From an uncultured virus (IMG/VR IMGVR_UViG_3300027336_000062) (lineage: Duplodnaviria > Heunggongvirae > Uroviricota > Caudoviricetes), in IMG/VR virus record IMGVR_UViG_3300027336_000062: a stretch of 20,000 bases of DNA. The stretch is one strand, 5' to 3'. Positions 5,672 through 16,164 of the stretch are shown here, one piece after another. The notes under the pieces are model-generated. The model did no database searches and was not told where the DNA came from. It worked only from the letters and a program-made list of their open reading frames with translations. The position numbers and the translations under genes are program-made. Numbering within the stretch: the first letter of the stretch is position 1; every line of letters starts with the position of its first letter.

Positions 5672-8600
5672 ATGGTGGCGATTACTCTTCGCGCCGACCT
5701 TACTCGTGGTCTGACTAACGAGGAGATCGACGCCAATATGACAAACCTCAAGGCGGCAGCGGAAGCTGCTGCTTTGACGGCTTCTTGGGCAGGTGTCACT
5801 GGCAAGCCAGCAACGCTGGCTGGCTATGGCATTACTGATGCTCAGCCTGTCGATGCTGATCTGACTGCCATTGCAGCCCTTGCTGGTACGTCTGGCTTTT
5901 TGAAGAAGACTGCCGCCAACACTTGGGCTTTGGATACCAGTACCTATTTGACTGGCATCACATCAGGTCAGGTGACTACGGCTCTGGGCTTTACCCCGTA
6001 CAACGCTACGAACCCGAACGGGTACATCACAAGCAGCGCCAGCATCTCCGGCACGTCGGCTGCGGTGAACTACACAGACACTAGAACGATTTCTCCCTCA
6101 TCGCATGGAGCAAACAGGCTCACGTTTGGCTTCACAAGCTGGAGCAACAACAACACTTCGCCTTGGGCTGACTACCTGCATCTGCGCGGCTACACGGACG
6201 CCACGGGTGGAAGTGACAACCTGCTGATGTTCCGCAAGGATGGGCTTGGCATTCGCGTATGGCAGCAATCCTTTGGCTCCGCAACGGCCTACTCCACGTT
6301 TAAAGATGTTGCGTGGACTGATGGCACGAACGCCTCCGGTACGTGGGGTATCAACGTCACCGGCTCGGCGGCCACACTGACCACGGGCCGCACTATCGCT
6401 ATGACTGGCGATGTGACCTACACCAGCGGCAGCTTCAATGGCTCAGCGAACGTCACAGGTACTGCAACGCTGGCAGCATCTGGGGTCACAGCAGGAACCT
6501 ACGGCAGCTCGACAAACATTCCTCAGTTGACTGTTGATGCAAAAGGCCGAGTAACTGCGGTTTCCAACGTCGCAGTCAGCATCCCATCGGGATCGCTGAC
6601 ATTTACTGGAGACGTTACTGGCACGGGCACCACTGGTTCAAGTACAGCCTTGACTCTGGCGAACTCTGGAGTGACCGCAGGAACCTACACCAAGGTGACG
6701 GTCGATGCCAAAGGCCGGGTGACCACTGGTGCTGCTCTTGCGGCTGGCGATGTGCCCACCCTGAACCAGAGCACCACCGGTAATGCAGGGAGCGTTACCA
6801 ACGGTGTTTACACAACTGGTGAACAAACAATTACTGCCCGCAAGATCTTTTCTACGACCAACAGTGCTATTGCAAGTGCAAGTGGAGATCTTTCAACCTT
6901 AGAAGTACGCTCTACCAGCACCGGGGCGGCTTTTATGGCCTTCCATCGCCCCACTCTTTATGCGGCTTACTTTGGCCTCGACAGTGACAACGTGTGGAAG
7001 GTGGGCGGCTGGTCGATGGGGGCCAACTCTTACCCGATTCTCCACTCCAACAACTACAACACCTACGCACCAACGCTGACAGGCACAGGTGCATCTGGTA
7101 CATGGAGCATCAACGTCACCGGAAATGCTGGGTCGGCGACGACTGCTGCGAGAGCAAGCGCAACCACTGTTCCTGCATCAACTGCTTTTACTAAATGGTT
7201 GTTTGCTACCACGAGCACTTCTGGGACTCTGGACTGGAACCACGTATCCAATACAAACCCTGGGGTTGGGGAAACGCTTCTGCTTGGGACGGCTACTAAC
7301 GGACCTGGCGGAAGCAATTATTACCACCCATTCAACATTGAGTATTCAGGAATCAGTGGTGTCGGTAACGTCACTCAGATGGCGGTCGCTTACGGCAACG
7401 TCGGCAATGAGTTGTACATGCGTGGCCGATTTGGCGGCACATGGACGGGGTGGTCTCGGTATCTGAATAGCAGCAACTACAACTCGTACAGCCCAACTCT
7501 TACCGGCACTGGTGCTTCGGGGACTTGGGGTATCTCAGTCAGTGGAAGCGCTGGCTCAGTCTCTGGCGGTGCGGTAAGCGCAAGCTCCGTTTACAACTCG
7601 GGCATGTGGTACACATTCCCGGACGCCAATCGAGACGCCAACAACGCCGTCTGGTCTCCAAGCGCCGTTACTCGTGGCGTGGCTTACTTCTTTGGCACCG
7701 CATCGAGCGTCGGCACAGGTGGCAACTACGCCGGTGTGATGCAGTTCAACCCTTGGATTGGTACAACAGCAAGCACCGGTGATGCTTCATATCAACTGGC
7801 TTTTGGTAGCACAGCGGCCAACGGCGGGGGCGTGCCTCAACTCAGGATTCGCAAGGGTATCGACACCACCTGGAACAGCTGGTACGACCTTCTGACATCG
7901 GCCAACTACAGCACCTACGCACTGCCATTGACTGGCGGCGCTCTCAGTGGGGTGCTTACCATCAACAGCACCAGCGATAATCAGTTGCTGCTCCAGTCTA
8001 CGGACTCGTGGACTGGTATTGGTTTCAATGACTCGGCTGTTTTAAACACAGAATACATCTGGCACAACGGAACTAATGGTACGTTTGCGATTGGTGGAGG
8101 TGGCGCAAACGTCGCTGGTAAGAAGTTGCACGTTCATGGCGGCATGACAGTTGGAGCAGGATACGCCACAACTGGCAATCCGACCAACGGCTTGAACGTC
8201 GAAGGTGCGATTCAGCAAGCTGGCAATCAAGTCCTTCACGCTGGCAACCACACAAGCTACAGCCCATCTCTCACTGGTACTGGTGCAAGCGGGTCTTGGG
8301 GCATAAGCGTCACTGGTTCTGCTGCGACACTGACCACAGCTCGCACGATCAACGGCGTGAGCTTCAACGGCAGTGCCAACATCACAGTCGCCGATTCGAC
8401 CAAGCTGCCTCTTGCTGGTGGAACGCTGACAGGCGCTCTCACGATCCAGTCAGCAGCACCGATCCTGAACTTCTTCGAGAGCGATCAGACTCTCCCCGCT
8501 GGTCGTCGCCGATTTGTGCAGGACGGAAACGCGTTCTCACTGCGCCGGAATACTGCGGCAGGTGGCGATTTTTCCACCGAGGTTTACGACCTCAACGTGG

Positions 8601-11387: not shown

Positions 11388-11870
11388 ATGGAACCCATCA
11401 CCATGGCCCTGACTGCCATGGCTGCTGTTCAAAAGACAGTATCCATGATCAAGCAGGCATCTAAAACCGCTGATGATGTGAGAAGTCTTGGCCCCTTGTT
11501 GGGCAGGTACTTCGAGCAGAAACATGAAGTCTCCAAGGCGCTGAACCAAGCTAAAAGCAAGGGCGGCTCCAACATGGGCAAGGCGGTCCAGATTGAACTG
11601 GATCTAAAAGCCCAACGTGACTTCGAAGAACAGGTCAAAGGCCTCTTCTTCCCTAACAACATGGATGTCTGGAACTCCATCATGGTCCGAGTGGCTGAGA
11701 TGGACAAGCAGGACAAGATTGATCAGCAGATAGCTCGAGACCGTCAACGTCGAGCCAAGCAGGATCAAGAAGAAATGATAGAGATCCTGATCGTTGTCGG
11801 TGGCGTCATCGTTATTTTTCTCTTGGTTGGCTTCGGTGCCTACCTCGTTATGTTCGAGATGAAGCGATGA
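11388..11870 (+). CDS. Membrane-anchored hypothetical protein
   Basis: 160 aa, helical, with a single C-terminal TM 'ILIVVGGVIVIFLLVGFGAYLVMF'. GGGGG RBS. Confidence 0.8.
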   Translation: MEPITMALTAMAAVQKTVSMIKQASKTADDVRSLGPLLGRYFEQKHEVSKALNQAKSKGGSNMGKAVQIELDLKAQRDFEEQVKGLFFPNNMDVWNSIMVRVAEMDKQDKIDQQIARDRQRRAKQDQEEMIEILIVVGGVIVIFLLVGFGAYLVMFEMKR

Positions 11871-12082
11871 AATATCTGATCTTCCTCTGTTTGGGACTCT
11901 TCACAGGTTGTGAAGAGCAATACCGCTATTACTGTCAGAACCCAGACAACTTCCATGCAGAACGCTGCCAGAAGCCAAAGTGTCAATTCACTCAGACTTG
12001 TCCGGAGTATCTAGTCGCCCCAGTTTTGGAGAAACAAATTGAACAAACAAGACCTGCCTCTGCGCCAACCCCTGTCCGCTGA
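11867..12082 (+). CDS. Small Cys-rich lipoprotein
   Basis: Signal peptide 'MKYLIFLCLGLFTG-C' with four further Cys in the mature part. ATGA overlap with the upstream gene. Confidence 0.78.
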   Translation: MKYLIFLCLGLFTGCEEQYRYYCQNPDNFHAERCQKPKCQFTQTCPEYLVAPVLEKQIEQTRPASAPTPVR

Positions 12083-12572
12083 AGAGGCGGTCATGATCAT
12101 GGAGGTCCGAGTATGGGCCTTCGTTGTTGTGGCTGTGACCATCATCTTGTTTGGCATTGTGGTGGCTCTTCTGTACTCCGTGACTTTCGTAACGCAGCCG
12201 ATCAAGTCAATGGCTCCCATTGACCAGGCCTACACGAAGATGCTGAATGACATCGTGCTGCTGATCGTGGGTGGTATTGGTGGTGTGATTGGTAAGCGTG
12301 CTGTATCGACAGCAGCCAAAGCATTCTCACCACAGCCCCCACAGCAGCCGATGTGCCAACCAATGATGGGTGGCTACAACCAGAACAGTTACGCCCCTCC
12401 ACAGTCTGCGTATGGCTTGCCATCACAGCCGTTTGGTGCAATGTCTGTCTGGAAGAACCCAGAGCTCGATGAGAGCTGGACACCAGGTCCGCCTCCCACG
12501 ACACCGCCTGAATATCAAGAGCCTGACGAAGACCGCGCAGAGATTGCTGCAGCACGGAAGGAAGAAGAATGA
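12039..12572 (+). CDS. Two-TM membrane protein with Pro-rich tail (holin candidate)
   Basis: TM1 'VWAFVVVAVTIILFGIVVALLYSVTFV', TM2 'IVLLIVGGIGGVIG'. Lies upstream of the spanins and endolysin. Start is uncertain (TTG 12039 or ATG 12093). Confidence 0.7.
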   Translation: MNKQDLPLRQPLSAEEAVMIMEVRVWAFVVVAVTIILFGIVVALLYSVTFVTQPIKSMAPIDQAYTKMLNDIVLLIVGGIGGVIGKRAVSTAAKAFSPQPPQQPMCQPMMGGYNQNSYAPPQSAYGLPSQPFGAMSVWKNPELDESWTPGPPPTTPPEYQEPDEDRAEIAAARKEEE

Positions 12573-13072
12573 ATCCGCTAACCCTTTACCCAGCGATTGC
12601 GCTTGTTGCACTCCTTGCCATAGGTGGCTTCTACAAGTACGGCTACAGCAACGGTTGGGATGATCGGGATACCGAGACTCAAATAGAGATTGCTCGCAAG
12701 AACGAAGAAGCTCGAGTCAAAGAGCAAGAGATGGCAGCAGTTGTTTCTGCCAAGGAAGCTGAACTTAGAAAGGCCAACGATGTTGTCAACAAAAAGCAAA
12801 CTGATCTTAATCGCCTCATTGCTACTGGCAGGGTGCGCCTCCCCGCCGCCAGTTGTCCACAAGCCAGCGTCAATCCCGCCACTCCCTCAGGAGATCGGGA
12901 CAAAGCGCCAAGCCAACCTGACCCAGCGACTGACGGACCTTCTGATTCCGAGCGAGAAACCCTCCAGCTTATCGCCCAAATCGCCGCAGACGGAGACCGG
13001 GCAATCAATCAGCTCAACGCCTGCATTGACGCCTACGAAGAAGTAAGGAGAACAGCAAATGCTAACCGCTGA
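12569..13072 (+). CDS. Rz: Rz-like inner-membrane spanin
   Basis: N-terminal TM, coiled-coil periplasmic part, and 'IAADGDRAINQLNACIDAY' Rz-type C-terminus. Contains a nested lipoprotein gene. Confidence 0.85.
   Translation: MNPLTLYPAIALVALLAIGGFYKYGYSNGWDDRDTETQIEIARKNEEARVKEQEMAAVVSAKEAELRKANDVVNKKQTDLNRLIATGRVRLPAASCPQASVNPATPSGDRDKAPSQPDPATDGPSDSERETLQLIAQIAADGDRAINQLNACIDAYEEVRRTANANR
12780..13046 (+). CDS. Rz1: Rz1-like outer-membrane spanin lipoprotein, fully embedded in Rz (+1 frame)
   Basis: AGAAAGG RBS then ATG 12780. 'MLSTKSKLILIASLLLAG-C' is a perfect lipobox followed by a Pro-rich segment (SPPPVVHKPASIPPLP). Confidence 0.85.
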   Translation: MLSTKSKLILIASLLLAGCASPPPVVHKPASIPPLPQEIGTKRQANLTQRLTDLLIPSEKPSSLSPKSPQTETGQSISSTPALTPTKK

Positions 13073-13688
13073 ACAATTACAACGACTGCACATTGCTCCT
13101 CAATGGGCCGATGCACTGAACGCTACCTTTGAGCGGTTCAACATCCTGACGCCTCGTCAGCAAGCAGCCTTCATTGGCCAGTGTGGCCATGAGAGCGGAA
13201 ACTTCCGTGTGCTTGAAGAGAACCTCAACTACCGTGCTGCCACGTTGCTGAAACTCTTTCCAAGAACACCAAAGAGAACTTGGGGATTCACGCCTGAGGA
13301 AGCTGCTGCCTACGAGAAGCAGCCGCGCAAGATCGCCAACCGGATCTACGGCAACCGCATGGGCAATCGGGATGAAGCTTCAGGAGACGGCTACCGGTTC
13401 CGAGGTCGTGGCTGCATTCAGCTCACTGGTTCAGCCAACTACTTCCATGCAGGCCAAGCCCTGGGTGTGGACTTCATCATGGAACCTGATCTGGTTTCCA
13501 CGCCTCAGTACGCTGCGTTGACTGCTGGTTGGTTCTGGAACACCCAGAAGCTCAATGCTCTGGCAGAAGCGAGTAACACGCTTGCACTGACCAAGAAGAT
13601 CAATGGTGGAACGATTGGGTTGGAAGACCGAATCAAACACACCAACATGGCGCTGGCGCTTCTGGGGCAGCAATCACAGATGGCTTAA
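13059..13688 (+). CDS. Endolysin, glycoside hydrolase family 19
   Basis: 'AAFIGQCGHESGNF...EENLNY', 'GDGYRFRGRGCIQLTG' and 'TKKINGGTIGLEDR' are GH19 motifs. GGAG RBS. Confidence 0.93.
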   Translation: MLTAEQLQRLHIAPQWADALNATFERFNILTPRQQAAFIGQCGHESGNFRVLEENLNYRAATLLKLFPRTPKRTWGFTPEEAAAYEKQPRKIANRIYGNRMGNRDEASGDGYRFRGRGCIQLTGSANYFHAGQALGVDFIMEPDLVSTPQYAALTAGWFWNTQKLNALAEASNTLALTKKINGGTIGLEDRIKHTNMALALLGQQSQMA

Positions 13689-13861
13689 ATCTCGGATAGA
13701 GACAAGCGTCGGAACTTTTCGCTCAGCGTCGCCTCTGATTTGGGAATCAGGGTGACAAGGGAGTTTCTAGGAGGCTGGTTTAATACCGGCCTCTTGTACG
13801 TCCGGTCTTGGTGATCGATCTTGACCTGAGGCACGTAGTCTTTGCTGAATGGATTGGTCAT
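13685..13861 (-). CDS. Hypothetical protein, 58 aa (below the ORF-track cutoff)
   Basis: MTNPFSKDYVPQVKIDHQDRTYKRP...RRLSLSEI*. ATGA-coupled to the upstream gene. Its stop shares TTAA with the convergent endolysin stop. Confidence 0.6.
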   Translation of the reverse strand: MTNPFSKDYVPQVKIDHQDRTYKRPVLNQPPRNSLVTLIPKSEATLSEKFRRLSLSEI

Positions 13862-14073
13862 GGGATTTGGTTTCCGTGGTACTTCATGGGTTGAGGGATG
13901 AGCTTGTCGGCCGACACAGTAAAGATGTTGCTGAGCCAGGGGTCAGTGGGACTGAACTCCAGGACACGCACCACTGGGCCTGTAGCAAGCGCCAGGACGT
14001 TCTTTTGGTGGTAGGTGTACCGATGCCCTTGCCGAGCGATTCTGAGGGCTTCTGGGCCGTCTGGTGCGGTCAT
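13858..14073 (-). CDS. Hypothetical protein, 71 aa
   Basis: MTAPDGPEALRIARQGHRYTY...PQPMKYHGNQIP. ATG 14073 is preferred because the longer frame from 14235 crosses a tRNA fragment and a terminator. Confidence 0.65.
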   Translation of the reverse strand: MTAPDGPEALRIARQGHRYTYHQKNVLALATGPVVRVLEFSPTDPWLSNIFTVSADKLIPQPMKYHGNQIP

Positions 14074-14121
14074 GGGAGTGCTTTCAATAGTACAACCCCG
14101 TGCCAATAGCACAGGGCAAAG

Positions 14122-14151
14122 AAAAAAGGCCTGAGTCGTTAGACCCAAGCC
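14122..14151 (-). terminator. Rho-independent terminator downstream of the tRNA fragment
   Basis: Minus strand GGCTTGGGTC-TAAC-GACTCAGGCC-TTTTTT: 10-bp stem with two G-U pairs, then a U6 tract. Confidence 0.75.
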
Positions 14152-14158
14152 CTTGATT
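14146..14158 (-). promoter_or_regulatory. IHF binding site consensus beside the att core
   Basis: Minus strand AATCAAGGGCTTG is an exact match to WATCAANNNNTTR, 13 nt beyond the tRNA CCA end. Confidence 0.6.
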
Positions 14159-14171
14159 TTGCTACACAAAC

Positions 14172-14212
14172 TGGCGCGCCCGGCAGGATTCGAACCCACG
14201 ACCCCTTGGTTC
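14172..14212 (-). tRNA. 3' half only of tRNA-Arg(ACG), 41 nt; attP-like core, not a functional tRNA
   Basis: Minus strand GAACCAAGGGGTCGTGGGTTCGAATCCTGCCGGGCGCGCCA covers the end of the anticodon loop, variable loop, T-arm (GTTCGAATC), acceptor 3' strand and CCA. No D-arm or 5' acceptor strand upstream. The isotype is recalled from betaproteobacterial tRNA-Arg, since the anticodon itself is cut. Confidence 0.85.
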
Positions 14213-14235
14213 TCTTTGCTGCGCTTGCGAGCCAT
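14203..14235 (-). pseudogene. Probable 5' remnant (11 codons) of a tyrosine integrase
   Basis: ATG GCT CGC AAG CGC AGC AAA GAG AAC CAA GGG encodes MARKRSKENQG. It is coupled by TAATG to the DUF4224 C-terminal frame, the position and basic N-terminus expected of the integrase that follows DUF4224 genes. Confidence 0.6.
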
Positions 14236-14256
14236 TACATTGCTTCCCAGTTAGGT

Positions 14257-14457
14257 TCAGCGTGTTTGGTTTGCTTCTTGGTTTCGGTGGTGCCATCGAA
14301 CACCTTGGTTTCCTTGATCACGCAGGATTACGACGCTTCCATCAGGCCGTACTCGGTGTTCGATGCCCATGGCTTTCAAGACCCTGACTTGTGCGGAGTG
14401 CACCTTGCGGTGAGTCAGGGCCTGGATTTCCTCATACGAGAGAAAGGTGTCAGTCAC
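14257..14457 (-). CDS. DUF4224 family putative excisionase; frameshifted C-terminus
   Basis: 'FLSYEEIQALTHRKVHSAQVRVLKAMGIEHRVRPDGSVVILR' is the DUF4224 signature. The expected tail '...TKVFDG...EPNWEAM*' lies in another frame ending at 14235. Confidence 0.85.
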   Translation of the reverse strand: MTDTFLSYEEIQALTHRKVHSAQVRVLKAMGIEHRVRPDGSVVILRDQGNQGVRWHHRNQEANQTR

Positions 14458-14839
14458 AATTTGCGTCTGCGTATTTGTCGATCATGTGATCGGCCCAAGC
14501 ATCGGCCATGATTTGTTCAACCTCATTGGACTTTGCATAGATCTGCTCATCAATGTCGGAGCCTTCGAACAGATCGGTGATCTCGATGCCTTGGTAGAAG
14601 CACTTGGCACCTTCAGCCACGATCCATTCATCGGGAGAGTCGCCACTTTCGACACTGAAGTAAACCGTGAAGTCTTTGCCACCCATGTCGATCTGTAATT
14701 CGAACTGGTGCATGGCACAAGCAGTGTCTTCTTGGTTCAAAGCAGATCGCAGATCGTCTCTGAGTTGAGGAAAGTGATCCTCATCAAGAGCCAGCAGTGA
14801 ACGCTTGGCGACATCGTAGAGTGAGTTGGGAGTTGTCAT
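14450..14839 (-). CDS. Hypothetical acidic protein
   Basis: 129 aa, GGAG RBS, overlaps both neighbours. Confidence 0.72.
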   Translation of the reverse strand: MTTPNSLYDVAKRSLLALDEDHFPQLRDDLRSALNQEDTACAMHQFELQIDMGGKDFTVYFSVESGDSPDEWIVAEGAKCFYQGIEITDLFEGSDIDEQIYAKSNEVEQIMADAWADHMIDKYADANCD

Positions 14840-15024
14840 TTTTTGTCTCCATCAATTTTCCAGCCCCAGTCCATGCGATCCCACGCATAGTCTTTGGCGT
14901 ACTCGTCTTTTTCTTCTTCGGACATTGCGTTCCATTCGTCTTCTTCAATTTCAAACTCAGTCTCGTATGAGGATTGATGGTTTGCGCCGCTGTCCAGCCA
15001 CGTTTTAATGGTGATCATGCTCAT
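14836..15024 (-). CDS. Small acidic hypothetical phage protein
   Basis: MSMITIKTWLDSGAN...EDEWNAMSEEEKDEYAKDYAWDRMDWGW. ATGA overlaps at both ends. Confidence 0.75.
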   Translation of the reverse strand: MSMITIKTWLDSGANHQSSYETEFEIEEDEWNAMSEEEKDEYAKDYAWDRMDWGWKIDGDKK

Positions 15025-15224
15025 GACACCCACTTCTGTCCCAGAGGACACCAAGTCACTTGCTGAGCGTCTTCAATGATGTGGCTTTGAACCACTTCTT
15101 GAAACGGATAGCCCAGTTTGTAGAAGCAATCTTCACGAATGGCAAACAGCTTTTCACCTGGATCAACATCAACAGTGACTCGCAGCTTGCCGCTTTTCAG
15201 GGTTTTGCAAGAGATCTCTTTCAT
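15021..15224 (-). CDS. Hypothetical protein
   Basis: 67 aa with ATGA coupling on both sides. Confidence 0.72.
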   Translation of the reverse strand: MKEISCKTLKSGKLRVTVDVDPGEKLFAIREDCFYKLGYPFQEVVQSHIIEDAQQVTWCPLGQKWVS

Positions 15225-15739
15225 GGTGCAGGCTTTGGCATCTTGGGTTGATTCTTAGGCCAGCCGGCTTTCACGAAGTCGCTCAGCACATTGGCCACTG
15301 CAGGCAGTGAAGCAACGGCTTTGGCTTCATCTGCAGGCAGATACTTTTCAAACTCAGGCAGCAGATCAATCAATGCCTTGCGAGTGGTCACGGCGTCAGC
15401 CGTGGCAGCGAGCTTGGTACGCAAAGCATCGAGACGGGCACGTTCTTCAGCAAACTCAACCAGCAAGGCTTCAACTTTCTCATTGACCTTGGGAGAGCGG
15501 CTGTATTCAGGGTGCATAACACGCACGTTGCTGCAGTGGTAGCCAGAAATATGATGGCTCTCTGTCTTCAAGAAATGCCGCAGAGCTTTGTCTTCAGCAA
15601 TGGCTTTGACTTTGGGAGGCAGCTGGGATATTGCGTCGTCTTGCAACAGCTTGTGAATCTCGGTTTCGTAATCGCGCTTTGGAACATCGTCCATTGCTGC
15701 ACGTACAAAAGCGTCACGGATTACTTTGGTCAGGCGCAT
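15221..15739 (-). CDS. Nmad5-like (nucleotide modification-associated domain 5) protein
   Basis: 'MRLTKVIRDAFVRAAMDDVP...VTTRKALIDLLPEFEKYLP...LPAV' resembles the family pattern as recalled. ATG 15739 lies downstream of the terminator. Confidence 0.65.
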   Translation of the reverse strand: MRLTKVIRDAFVRAAMDDVPKRDYETEIHKLLQDDAISQLPPKVKAIAEDKALRHFLKTESHHISGYHCSNVRVMHPEYSRSPKVNEKVEALLVEFAEERARLDALRTKLAATADAVTTRKALIDLLPEFEKYLPADEAKAVASLPAVANVLSDFVKAGWPKNQPKMPKPAP

Positions 15740-15763
15740 GATTTTCTTTCTTGGTTCAGGAAT

Positions 15764-15786
15764 AAAAAAAGCCCCCGAAGGGGCTT
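15764..15786 (-). terminator. Rho-independent terminator with UUCG tetraloop
   Basis: Minus strand AAGCCCC-TTCG-GGGGCTT-TTTTT. Confidence 0.9.
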
Positions 15787-15804
15787 GATTGAGTGAAGTG
15801 GGAT

Positions 15805-16164
15805 TCAACCCATTCGAAGGATCTCGATACCAGCATCAGTGGTGTTGGTGATGTAGGTGTCCTTGCCCCACTCTTGGGAGAGCGTTGAAGAAATGCCTCC
15901 ACGAATATCTTTTGAAGGGTATTTTCCAGAAGGAACAACTTGCACTGAGCCAATGGGAGCATCGAAATTGATCAACGGTCGGTAGTACGAAGTAAGCTCT
16001 CCGTAGGGATACTTGCGGGGAGCACGCTGGCGCTCTTTTGGCACAGCGACTTCCAAACCGTTGCTGATTGTCTCGCCTTGTTCAGTGACGATGGCGTATT
16101 GACAACCGGAAGCCACAAGCAGTTTGATGGCTTTGTTCAATGCGATAACTTGTACCTCAGTCAT
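15805..16164 (-). CDS. Hypothetical protein
   Basis: 119 aa from ATG 16164, an ATGA overlap with the polymerase stop. Confidence 0.78.
   Translation of the reverse strand: MTEVQVIALNKAIKLLVASGCQYAIVTEQGETISNGLEVAVPKERQRAPRKYPYGELTSYYRPLINFDAPIGSVQVVPSGKYPSKDIRGGISSTLSQEWGKDTYITNTTDAGIEILRMG

Follow-up and report, generated by a model that had tools for sequence, protein, structure and literature searches.

The window, by which we mean the whole 20,000-nt stretch of viral DNA analysed here, contains two gene blocks that converge. Late genes lie on the plus strand and end with the spanin and endolysin genes at 12569-13688, while early and replication genes lie on the minus strand, among them (Pfam assignments) a family A DNA polymerase and, next to it, an Nmad5 (nucleotide modification associated) protein at 15221-15808 and a DUF7167 protein at 14836-15054; the two blocks meet head-on at 13.7-14.5 kb. 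Reading along the minus strand at this meeting point, a DUF4224 open reading frame is followed by a TAATG motif, by the 11 codons MARKRSKENQG and by the last 41 nt of a tRNA. A megablast search of window positions 13000-15900 against phage records returned no match. The features of the locus, with the evidence for each in brackets, are:

13059..13688, plus strand: endolysin gene (glycoside hydrolase 19), last gene of the converging late operon and far border of the locus (Pfam PF00182; PHROG 181, E 6e-73)
13858..14073, minus strand: small phage ORF of 71 aa, 3' of attP (ORF list; homologue at 6458..6826 in the relative L132; BLAST)
14074..14171, minus strand: retained P' arm of attP, kept among relatives, with a terminator hairpin at 14154..14125 plus a T run (alignment; terminator scan, 13 pairs)
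14172..14212, minus strand: 3' 41 nt of tRNA-Arg(ACG), G36 to A76/CCA, the right part of the attP core (genome matches; tRNA calls; alignment)
14204..14212, minus strand: deletion junction GAACCAAGG, common to integrase codons 8-11 and tRNA positions 36-44 (split BLAST segments; three-way comparison)
14204..14235, minus strand: remnant of the integrase gene (int), its ATG (14235..14233) and codons 2-11, MARKRSKENQG, with the TAATG at 14237..14233 (31 of 32 nt identical to the start of L132 int)
14235..14309, minus strand: original DUF4224 tail, TKVFDG...PNWEAM*, now in another frame (translation; tails of L132, L133, L134 and L137)
14257..14457, minus strand: DUF4224 (excisionase-like) ORF, 66 aa as now read, domain intact (Pfam PF13986, E 3.9e-15; PHROG excisionase families)
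14301..14321, minus strand: 21-nt stretch that also occurs in the integrase C-terminal coding region, peptide VIKETKV (20 of 21 in L132 int DNA)
14310..14312, minus strand: run of three A with one extra base, giving the DUF4224 frameshift (X17 contig without one base at 14310; L132 one base shorter)

The 11-codon frame does run straight into a tRNA 3' half (14235..14172, minus strand), as the first-pass annotation of this DNA had noticed. We do not take the remnant for a chance reading frame, since its first 32 nt agree with the start of the L132 integrase gene at every position but one, a C in the window for a T in the Asn codon. At 14212..14204 the junction GAACCAAGG can be read in two ways: as codons it consists of the third base of GAG followed by AAC, CAA and GG, and as tRNA it consists of positions 36-44, that is, the last three nucleotides of the anticodon loop, the 3' side of the anticodon stem and one more G, which confirms the double reading, from the last anticodon base (G36) onwards, that had been proposed for it. 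The 40-nt stretch from A37 to CCA (AACCAAGG...GCGCCA) is found exactly in more than 128 betaproteobacterial genome contigs, a lower bound, and in L014 and L005 it falls inside a tRNA-Arg(ACG) called by ARAGORN; the same program calls no whole tRNA in the window. Eleven int codons are left, and the PF00589 catalytic domain is absent from the window. The ATG of the remnant now opens a 125-aa frame (14235..13858, minus strand) that passes through the tRNA part and the terminator and continues in frame into the 71-aa gene; this frame, which joins the int remnant to the small ORF because of the deletion, is probably accidental and not translated as such.

A protein search with DUF4224 yielded 14 viral loci, five of which (L132, L133, L134, L137 and L138) include both flanks of the locus. 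All five have an intact tyrosine integrase of 362-363 aa at the place of the deletion. In each of them the alignment to the window is split: window 14470..14200 corresponds to DUF4224 and the start of int, and 14212..~14070 matches 1.8-2.1 kb further on, the two BLAST segments overlapping at 14212..14204 or 14200. Because the five relatives carry this extra DNA between the flanks, it is the window that has come to be without 1.8-2.1 kb. The N-terminus of the integrase is exactly MARKRSKENQG in L132 and L138 (MARKRSKENQGLPARW), and the others have close variants of it. L132, a 70-kb contig rated 96 % complete, offers the clearest view of the extra DNA, which there comprises a 362-aa integrase gene, ORFs of 108 and 80 aa with no assigned function, and a P arm of ~140 bp; the encoded protein is a PHROG integrase with a PF00589 score of 28.6 bits, above the cut-off and the one match in G003/L132. 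In all nine full-length integrases examined, the gene directly follows DUF4224. The comparison shows the deletion, as reconstructed, to have taken int from codon 12 to its end, the two small ORFs, the P arm of attP and the first four of the seven bases of the loop core.

The attachment site of the relatives shows where in the tRNA this happened. Work by Williams from 2002 is said to make the anticodon loop the crossover segment of such sites and the halves of its stem the inverted core sites. In L132, L134, L137 and L138, the anticodon loop, CTACGAA, marks the start of the block identical to the tRNA (alignment of four attP sites and one host tRNA). Among 16 viral contigs that carry a tRNA half, four hold a whole tRNA, and identity starts at C32 in six, at G30 in three, at T29 in two and at G36 in one. 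The start at G36 belongs to the window lineage alone (the L002 contig), and none of the other 15 contigs has a junction inside the loop; in the 11 that are attP-like (including L132, L134, L137, L138 and L210) identity begins at C32, G30 or T29 and never within the loop. In the window, CTAC, four of the seven loop bases, has been replaced and the whole P arm is gone together with int. Only GAA, the right stem half and the P' arm remain, so the attP core is destroyed, and the site would therefore be unusable even with integrase supplied in trans. The proposals made in the first pass have thus held at this point: an integrase body was removed between codon ~8-11 and attP, as judged from the two-flank relatives, which keep an intact int there; in L132 and L138 an intact int starting MARKRSKENQG, which was suggested as a check, does lie between DUF4224 and the tRNA fragment; and the junction placed at the anticodon loop is found inside an anticodon-loop attP core.

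Two side observations concern the same region. The terminator hairpin in the P' arm has paired substitutions in L137 and L138 by which its stem is preserved, and it resembles the terminator that follows the host tRNA in L014. In L133 a complete tRNA-Arg(ACG) gene (6199-6275), with phage genes on both sides, occupies the attP position, where the others have only the 3' part; it agrees with a Bordetella tRNA at 63 of 77 positions, the anticodon and T stems being different.

Taken together, the best explanation is that the window comes from a phage of ~70 kb that infects betaproteobacteria and whose ancestors were temperate, integrating in the anticodon loop of tRNA-Arg(ACG). The lineage was found in river metagenomes.

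The junction is not an assembly artefact. The same junction is present in L002, a 32.9-kb viral contig with flanks of ~2 kb and ~4 kb, and in the metagenome contig L145, and the sequence around it is identical in all three contigs, which argues for one event. Downstream, the window and L002 diverge at ~13990, where identity falls to 60-76 %, and L145 is unlike both over ~14080-14000 and then follows L002; since the three contigs share the junction and differ downstream, a single, heritable deletion allele is present on three haplotypes. The evidence from sequencing runs consists of assembled contigs aligned to the window, and runs X1-X16, all riverine, may belong to a single campaign and are not independent. 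One contig of run X1, possibly the source sample, agrees with the window at every position between 15500 and 14183, and a second X1 contig spans 13334..14211. That the junction is a chimera assembled at the tRNA-like repeat we consider a negligible prospect. It is true that the Logan contigs have breaks at 14183 and 14211 and that G001, a near-identical record, stops at 13940, but L002 and L145 span the junction, the X1 contig extends 30 letters past it into the tRNA part, one letter short of the length required for bridging, and both flanks are phage DNA collinear with the relatives. Contigs here tend to break at allele branch points, as seen from the sharp mosaic breakpoints at ~13990 and ~14080-14000, from the end of G001 and from the start of L210, 17 nt before G36. 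L210 also bears on the age of the allele: over 2541 nt (window 14212..11672) its identity is 99.96 %, yet it has TGGCTAC before G36, with the core intact, and a near-identical contig with an intact core means that the deletion is recent.

The DUF4224 gene upstream has been altered as well. Its domain match is strong (E 3.9e-15), while its conserved tail is out of frame: the C-terminal tail has been swapped after residue 46, and relatives align to residues 1-46 only. The tails of the relatives have the form ...KVFDG...PNW(E/D)AM*, and the TAA (14237..14235) of the TAATG motif is the end of this conserved tail (TKVFDGTTETKKQTKHAEPNWEAM*), overlapping the ATG of int. The open frame of DUF4224 now ends at a TGA at 14259..14257, so that the stop-start coupling between DUF4224 and int is no longer in use; the TAATG coupling described in the first-pass annotation therefore stands as a motif and falls as a functioning coupling, because the frameshifted DUF4224 frame stops earlier. 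A contig of run X17 (1536 nt) is 94.5 % like the window over 14204..14456 and has DUF4224 in frame; past 14204 it reads LPARWRHTHG (by eye), with 28 of 30 nt as in L132 int. There is thus a close relative in which the 5' region of int is intact and DUF4224 is in frame. With the extra A at 14310-14312 the stretch agrees fully with the integrase copy of the 21-nt repeat, and this base could have originated by slippage in the A run or by a short conversion from the integrase copy.

Loose contig ends at 14301 (run X4) and 14321 (run X17), the two limits of this 21-nt stretch, read integrase C-terminal sequence. The X4 contig, 5455 nt long, equals the window from 15500 to 14301 and then continues for 167 letters, of which the first 30 are integrase sequence following VIKETKV (28 of 30 against L132, by eye). 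It appears to represent a second, different deletion that destroyed int, in which DUF4224 would be fused to the last ~57 integrase codons by way of the 21-nt repeat. A chimera is unlikely in this case because the repeat is shorter than the assembler word, which we take to be 31 letters. Positions 14260-14300 are uncovered among the contigs listed for run X4, and we draw no inference from this. A profile search with the integrase C-terminus gave 26 loci, none closer than 81 %, with patterns unable to match the X4 form. Besides the L002 contig, a 21-nt scan of viral contigs found only two collagen-like repeat genes (GDQGNQG), both unrelated; the occurrences in L146 and L148 are due to chance, both being unrelated viral contigs with long, tail-fibre-like genes of collagen-like G-x-Q-G repeats. 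An apparent third deletion allele, a 'joint' of 14212 and 14301 in runs X17 and X21, was rejected: its short side has 21 letters (<30), the intervening letters are not known, and an intact contig with the 3' repeat of int and attP would look alike.

The PF00589 profile has no match in G001 (52 % complete) or G002 (45 %), the two halves of a near-identical genome that together amount to about the whole genome. With no other integrase found, the P arm and the full core gone and DUF4224 frameshifted, we infer that the window lineage would be unable to lysogenise by integration.

As to how the deletion arose, we give an even chance to recombination that the phage's own integrase promoted, with attP and a pseudo-site within int as the partners, in the manner of the int-dependent deletions of lambda. 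The attP complex would have taken the 5' stretch of int as a secondary, attB-like site, one in which the right half-site, CCAAG, is perfect and the GAA of the overlap lies next to it. With attP and pseudo-site in direct orientation on one molecule, the integrase would have broken and rejoined the DNA, and the intervening DNA would have been cut out as a circle; the product left behind would consist of the left flank of the pseudo-site, the overlap, the right half-site and the P' arm, which is the structure seen. The event would have been accidental, with no regulated switch. The position of the attP-side endpoint is a point in favour: it is the edge of overlap and right half-site, 14212..14204 covering the last three overlap bases and the right half-site, and an end at the overlap edge is expected if the integrase promoted the event and improbable otherwise. 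The pseudo-site itself is a mixed match to attP, with five of five positions of the right half-site plus the G and three of seven in the overlap, and its left flank, GCAGCA, agrees at two of six positions with L210 and at one of six with the tRNA. Tyrosine integrases normally require identity of the overlap, as work on lambda has taught, and a pseudo-site that is poor on the left and has 3/7 of the overlap would count against catalysis by the integrase. No second independent core-ended junction was found in a metagenome scan or among the 16 viral contigs with a tRNA half, and no reciprocal circle was seen among the run contigs.

The same deletion could have occurred without integrase, by replication slippage or another short-homology (illegitimate) joining of two 9-bp copies of GAACCAAGG ~1.9 kb apart, a course of events to which we assign somewhat less than an even chance. 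That one copy lies in the attP core would then be a coincidence, the anticodon stem of tRNA-Arg(ACG) happening to have the same letters as the codons for Glu-Asn-Gln-Gly. The identity at the junction is a perfect 9 bp with exactly one copy kept, as slippage would have it, and 9 bp is among the longest repeats in the module (17-18 pairs of at least 9 bp). The ancestor probably had the repeat in perfect form, since the Asn codon is AAC in eight of the nine closest integrases (23 of 37 overall) and L138 carries AACCAAGG at the int codons (8/8); L132 agrees at 8 of 9, having a T where the window has C. Across the integrase family the ENxG motif is conserved for protein reasons, the left half of the supposed pseudo-site is unlike a core site, and the X4 allele sits in a 21-nt repeat with no end in attP, which suggests that homology-driven deletion is active in this background. 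It is the position of the junction that slippage explains poorly. We counted exact direct-repeat pairs whose deletion removes at least 30 nt of int: among pairs of at least 8 bp, those touching the core were 0 of 74 in L132 and 2 of 49 in L138, and among pairs of at least 9 bp there were none in either (0 of 18 and 0 of 17), so that a random short-homology deletion would seldom end in the core. Reckoned as about 1 in 18 pairs of at least 9 bp, or 0-2 of 49-74 pairs of at least 8 bp, the observed position is improbable under slippage, at roughly 2-6 %. Far less credible, indeed very improbable, is the programmed event put forward in the first-pass annotation, in which the integrase would excise itself at a dedicated cryptic att site in int, a recurring one-way change from the temperate to the lytic way of life. 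The junction in the core and the perfect right half-site of the pseudo-site would suit such a switch, as would the recurrence of AACCAAGG-like words in DUF4224 and at the 5' and 3' ends of int in relatives. Against it, one event only is seen, the three junction contigs being identical around the junction; a metagenome scan that allowed synonymous codons returned one contig, of the same lineage; an in-loop junction occurs in one of the 16 viral contigs with a tRNA half; and AACCAAGG is present at the int codons in 2 of 37 family members, which means that the DNA of the site is not conserved. The X4 deletion has its breakpoints elsewhere, and scattered breakpoints are the result that the annotation had itself named as refuting the programmed version; with one lineage and such breakpoints, a programmed switch is not supported.

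Returning to recombination promoted by the integrase, our account of the lineage as a whole is tentative, and we place it just short of an even chance. The integrase would have destroyed its own gene by using int codons 8-11 as a secondary attB, and int, the two cargo ORFs and the P arm would have been excised as a circle, producing an integration-dead river lineage in one step. It may be that the DUF4224 frameshift came first and that selection then favoured the loss of int: once DUF4224 was frameshifted, integration would have been a dead end, and this would explain why two independent int deletions are found in one background.

The deletion in the window is a natural case of known event types, well resolved and ordinary in kind. 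Its value lies in being a clean, datable natural example of a temperate phage turning non-integrating, for which public data show the scar, an intact sister allele of 99.96 % identity and a second, independent deletion. If the integrase made the cut, secondary-site recombination within a phage's own genome would be a real route to the loss of lysogeny outside the laboratory, and an int gene would be fragile if its codons resembled the att core that its own enzyme uses. For annotation there is a warning here too, in that a tRNA fragment together with a DUF4224 gene is no proof of a temperate phage.

Among known systems, the int-dependent deletions of lambda come closest to the reading that we prefer. 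Int-dependent deletions that generate att sites are on record for lambda (Hoess and Landy 1978, PNAS 75:5437, cited in PMC5831537). Hoess and Landy reportedly described such deletions ending in the att core, with Int-mediated intramolecular recombination between attP and a secondary site, and a 1971 study by Parkinson and Huskey is cited as well. Like these, the deletion in the window left the phage viable, reaches from the attP core to another site in the same phage and leaves a single-armed hybrid att. Unlike the lambda deletions, it is a natural allele from river metagenomes and not the outcome of laboratory selection, its attP is of the tRNA anticodon-loop type, and the role of Int is here proposed from the sequence. 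The secondary site, moreover, lies inside int itself, so that the enzyme's own gene was lost, which again sets it apart from lambda.

An anticodon-centred class of attP sites used by tyrosine integrases in tRNA genes (Islander class A) is described in PMC4383910. The relatives resemble this class in having DUF4224, int and a block of identity from the anticodon loop to the CCA of tRNA-Arg(ACG), whereas the window keeps G36 onward only, with no P arm and no integrase, and is a remnant rather than a working site. Phages and bacteria also undergo short-homology (slipped-mispairing) deletions, in which the direct repeats are 5-20 bp long. The window's deletion is like them in that the inferred ancestor had the same 9 bp at either end and one copy was retained; it is unlike them in that one of the repeats is at the same time the site where the recombinase itself cuts, something that slipped mispairing does not predict. 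It is common knowledge that temperate phages lose the lysogeny module. Virulent or non-lysogenising derivatives of temperate phages that arose by decay of this module include those of the lactococcal P335 phages (PMC3757294). As in those derivatives, integration functions have been lost in the window lineage while close relatives are temperate; unlike them, the present case has an exact scar, sister alleles and an order of decay that are readable from the sequence.
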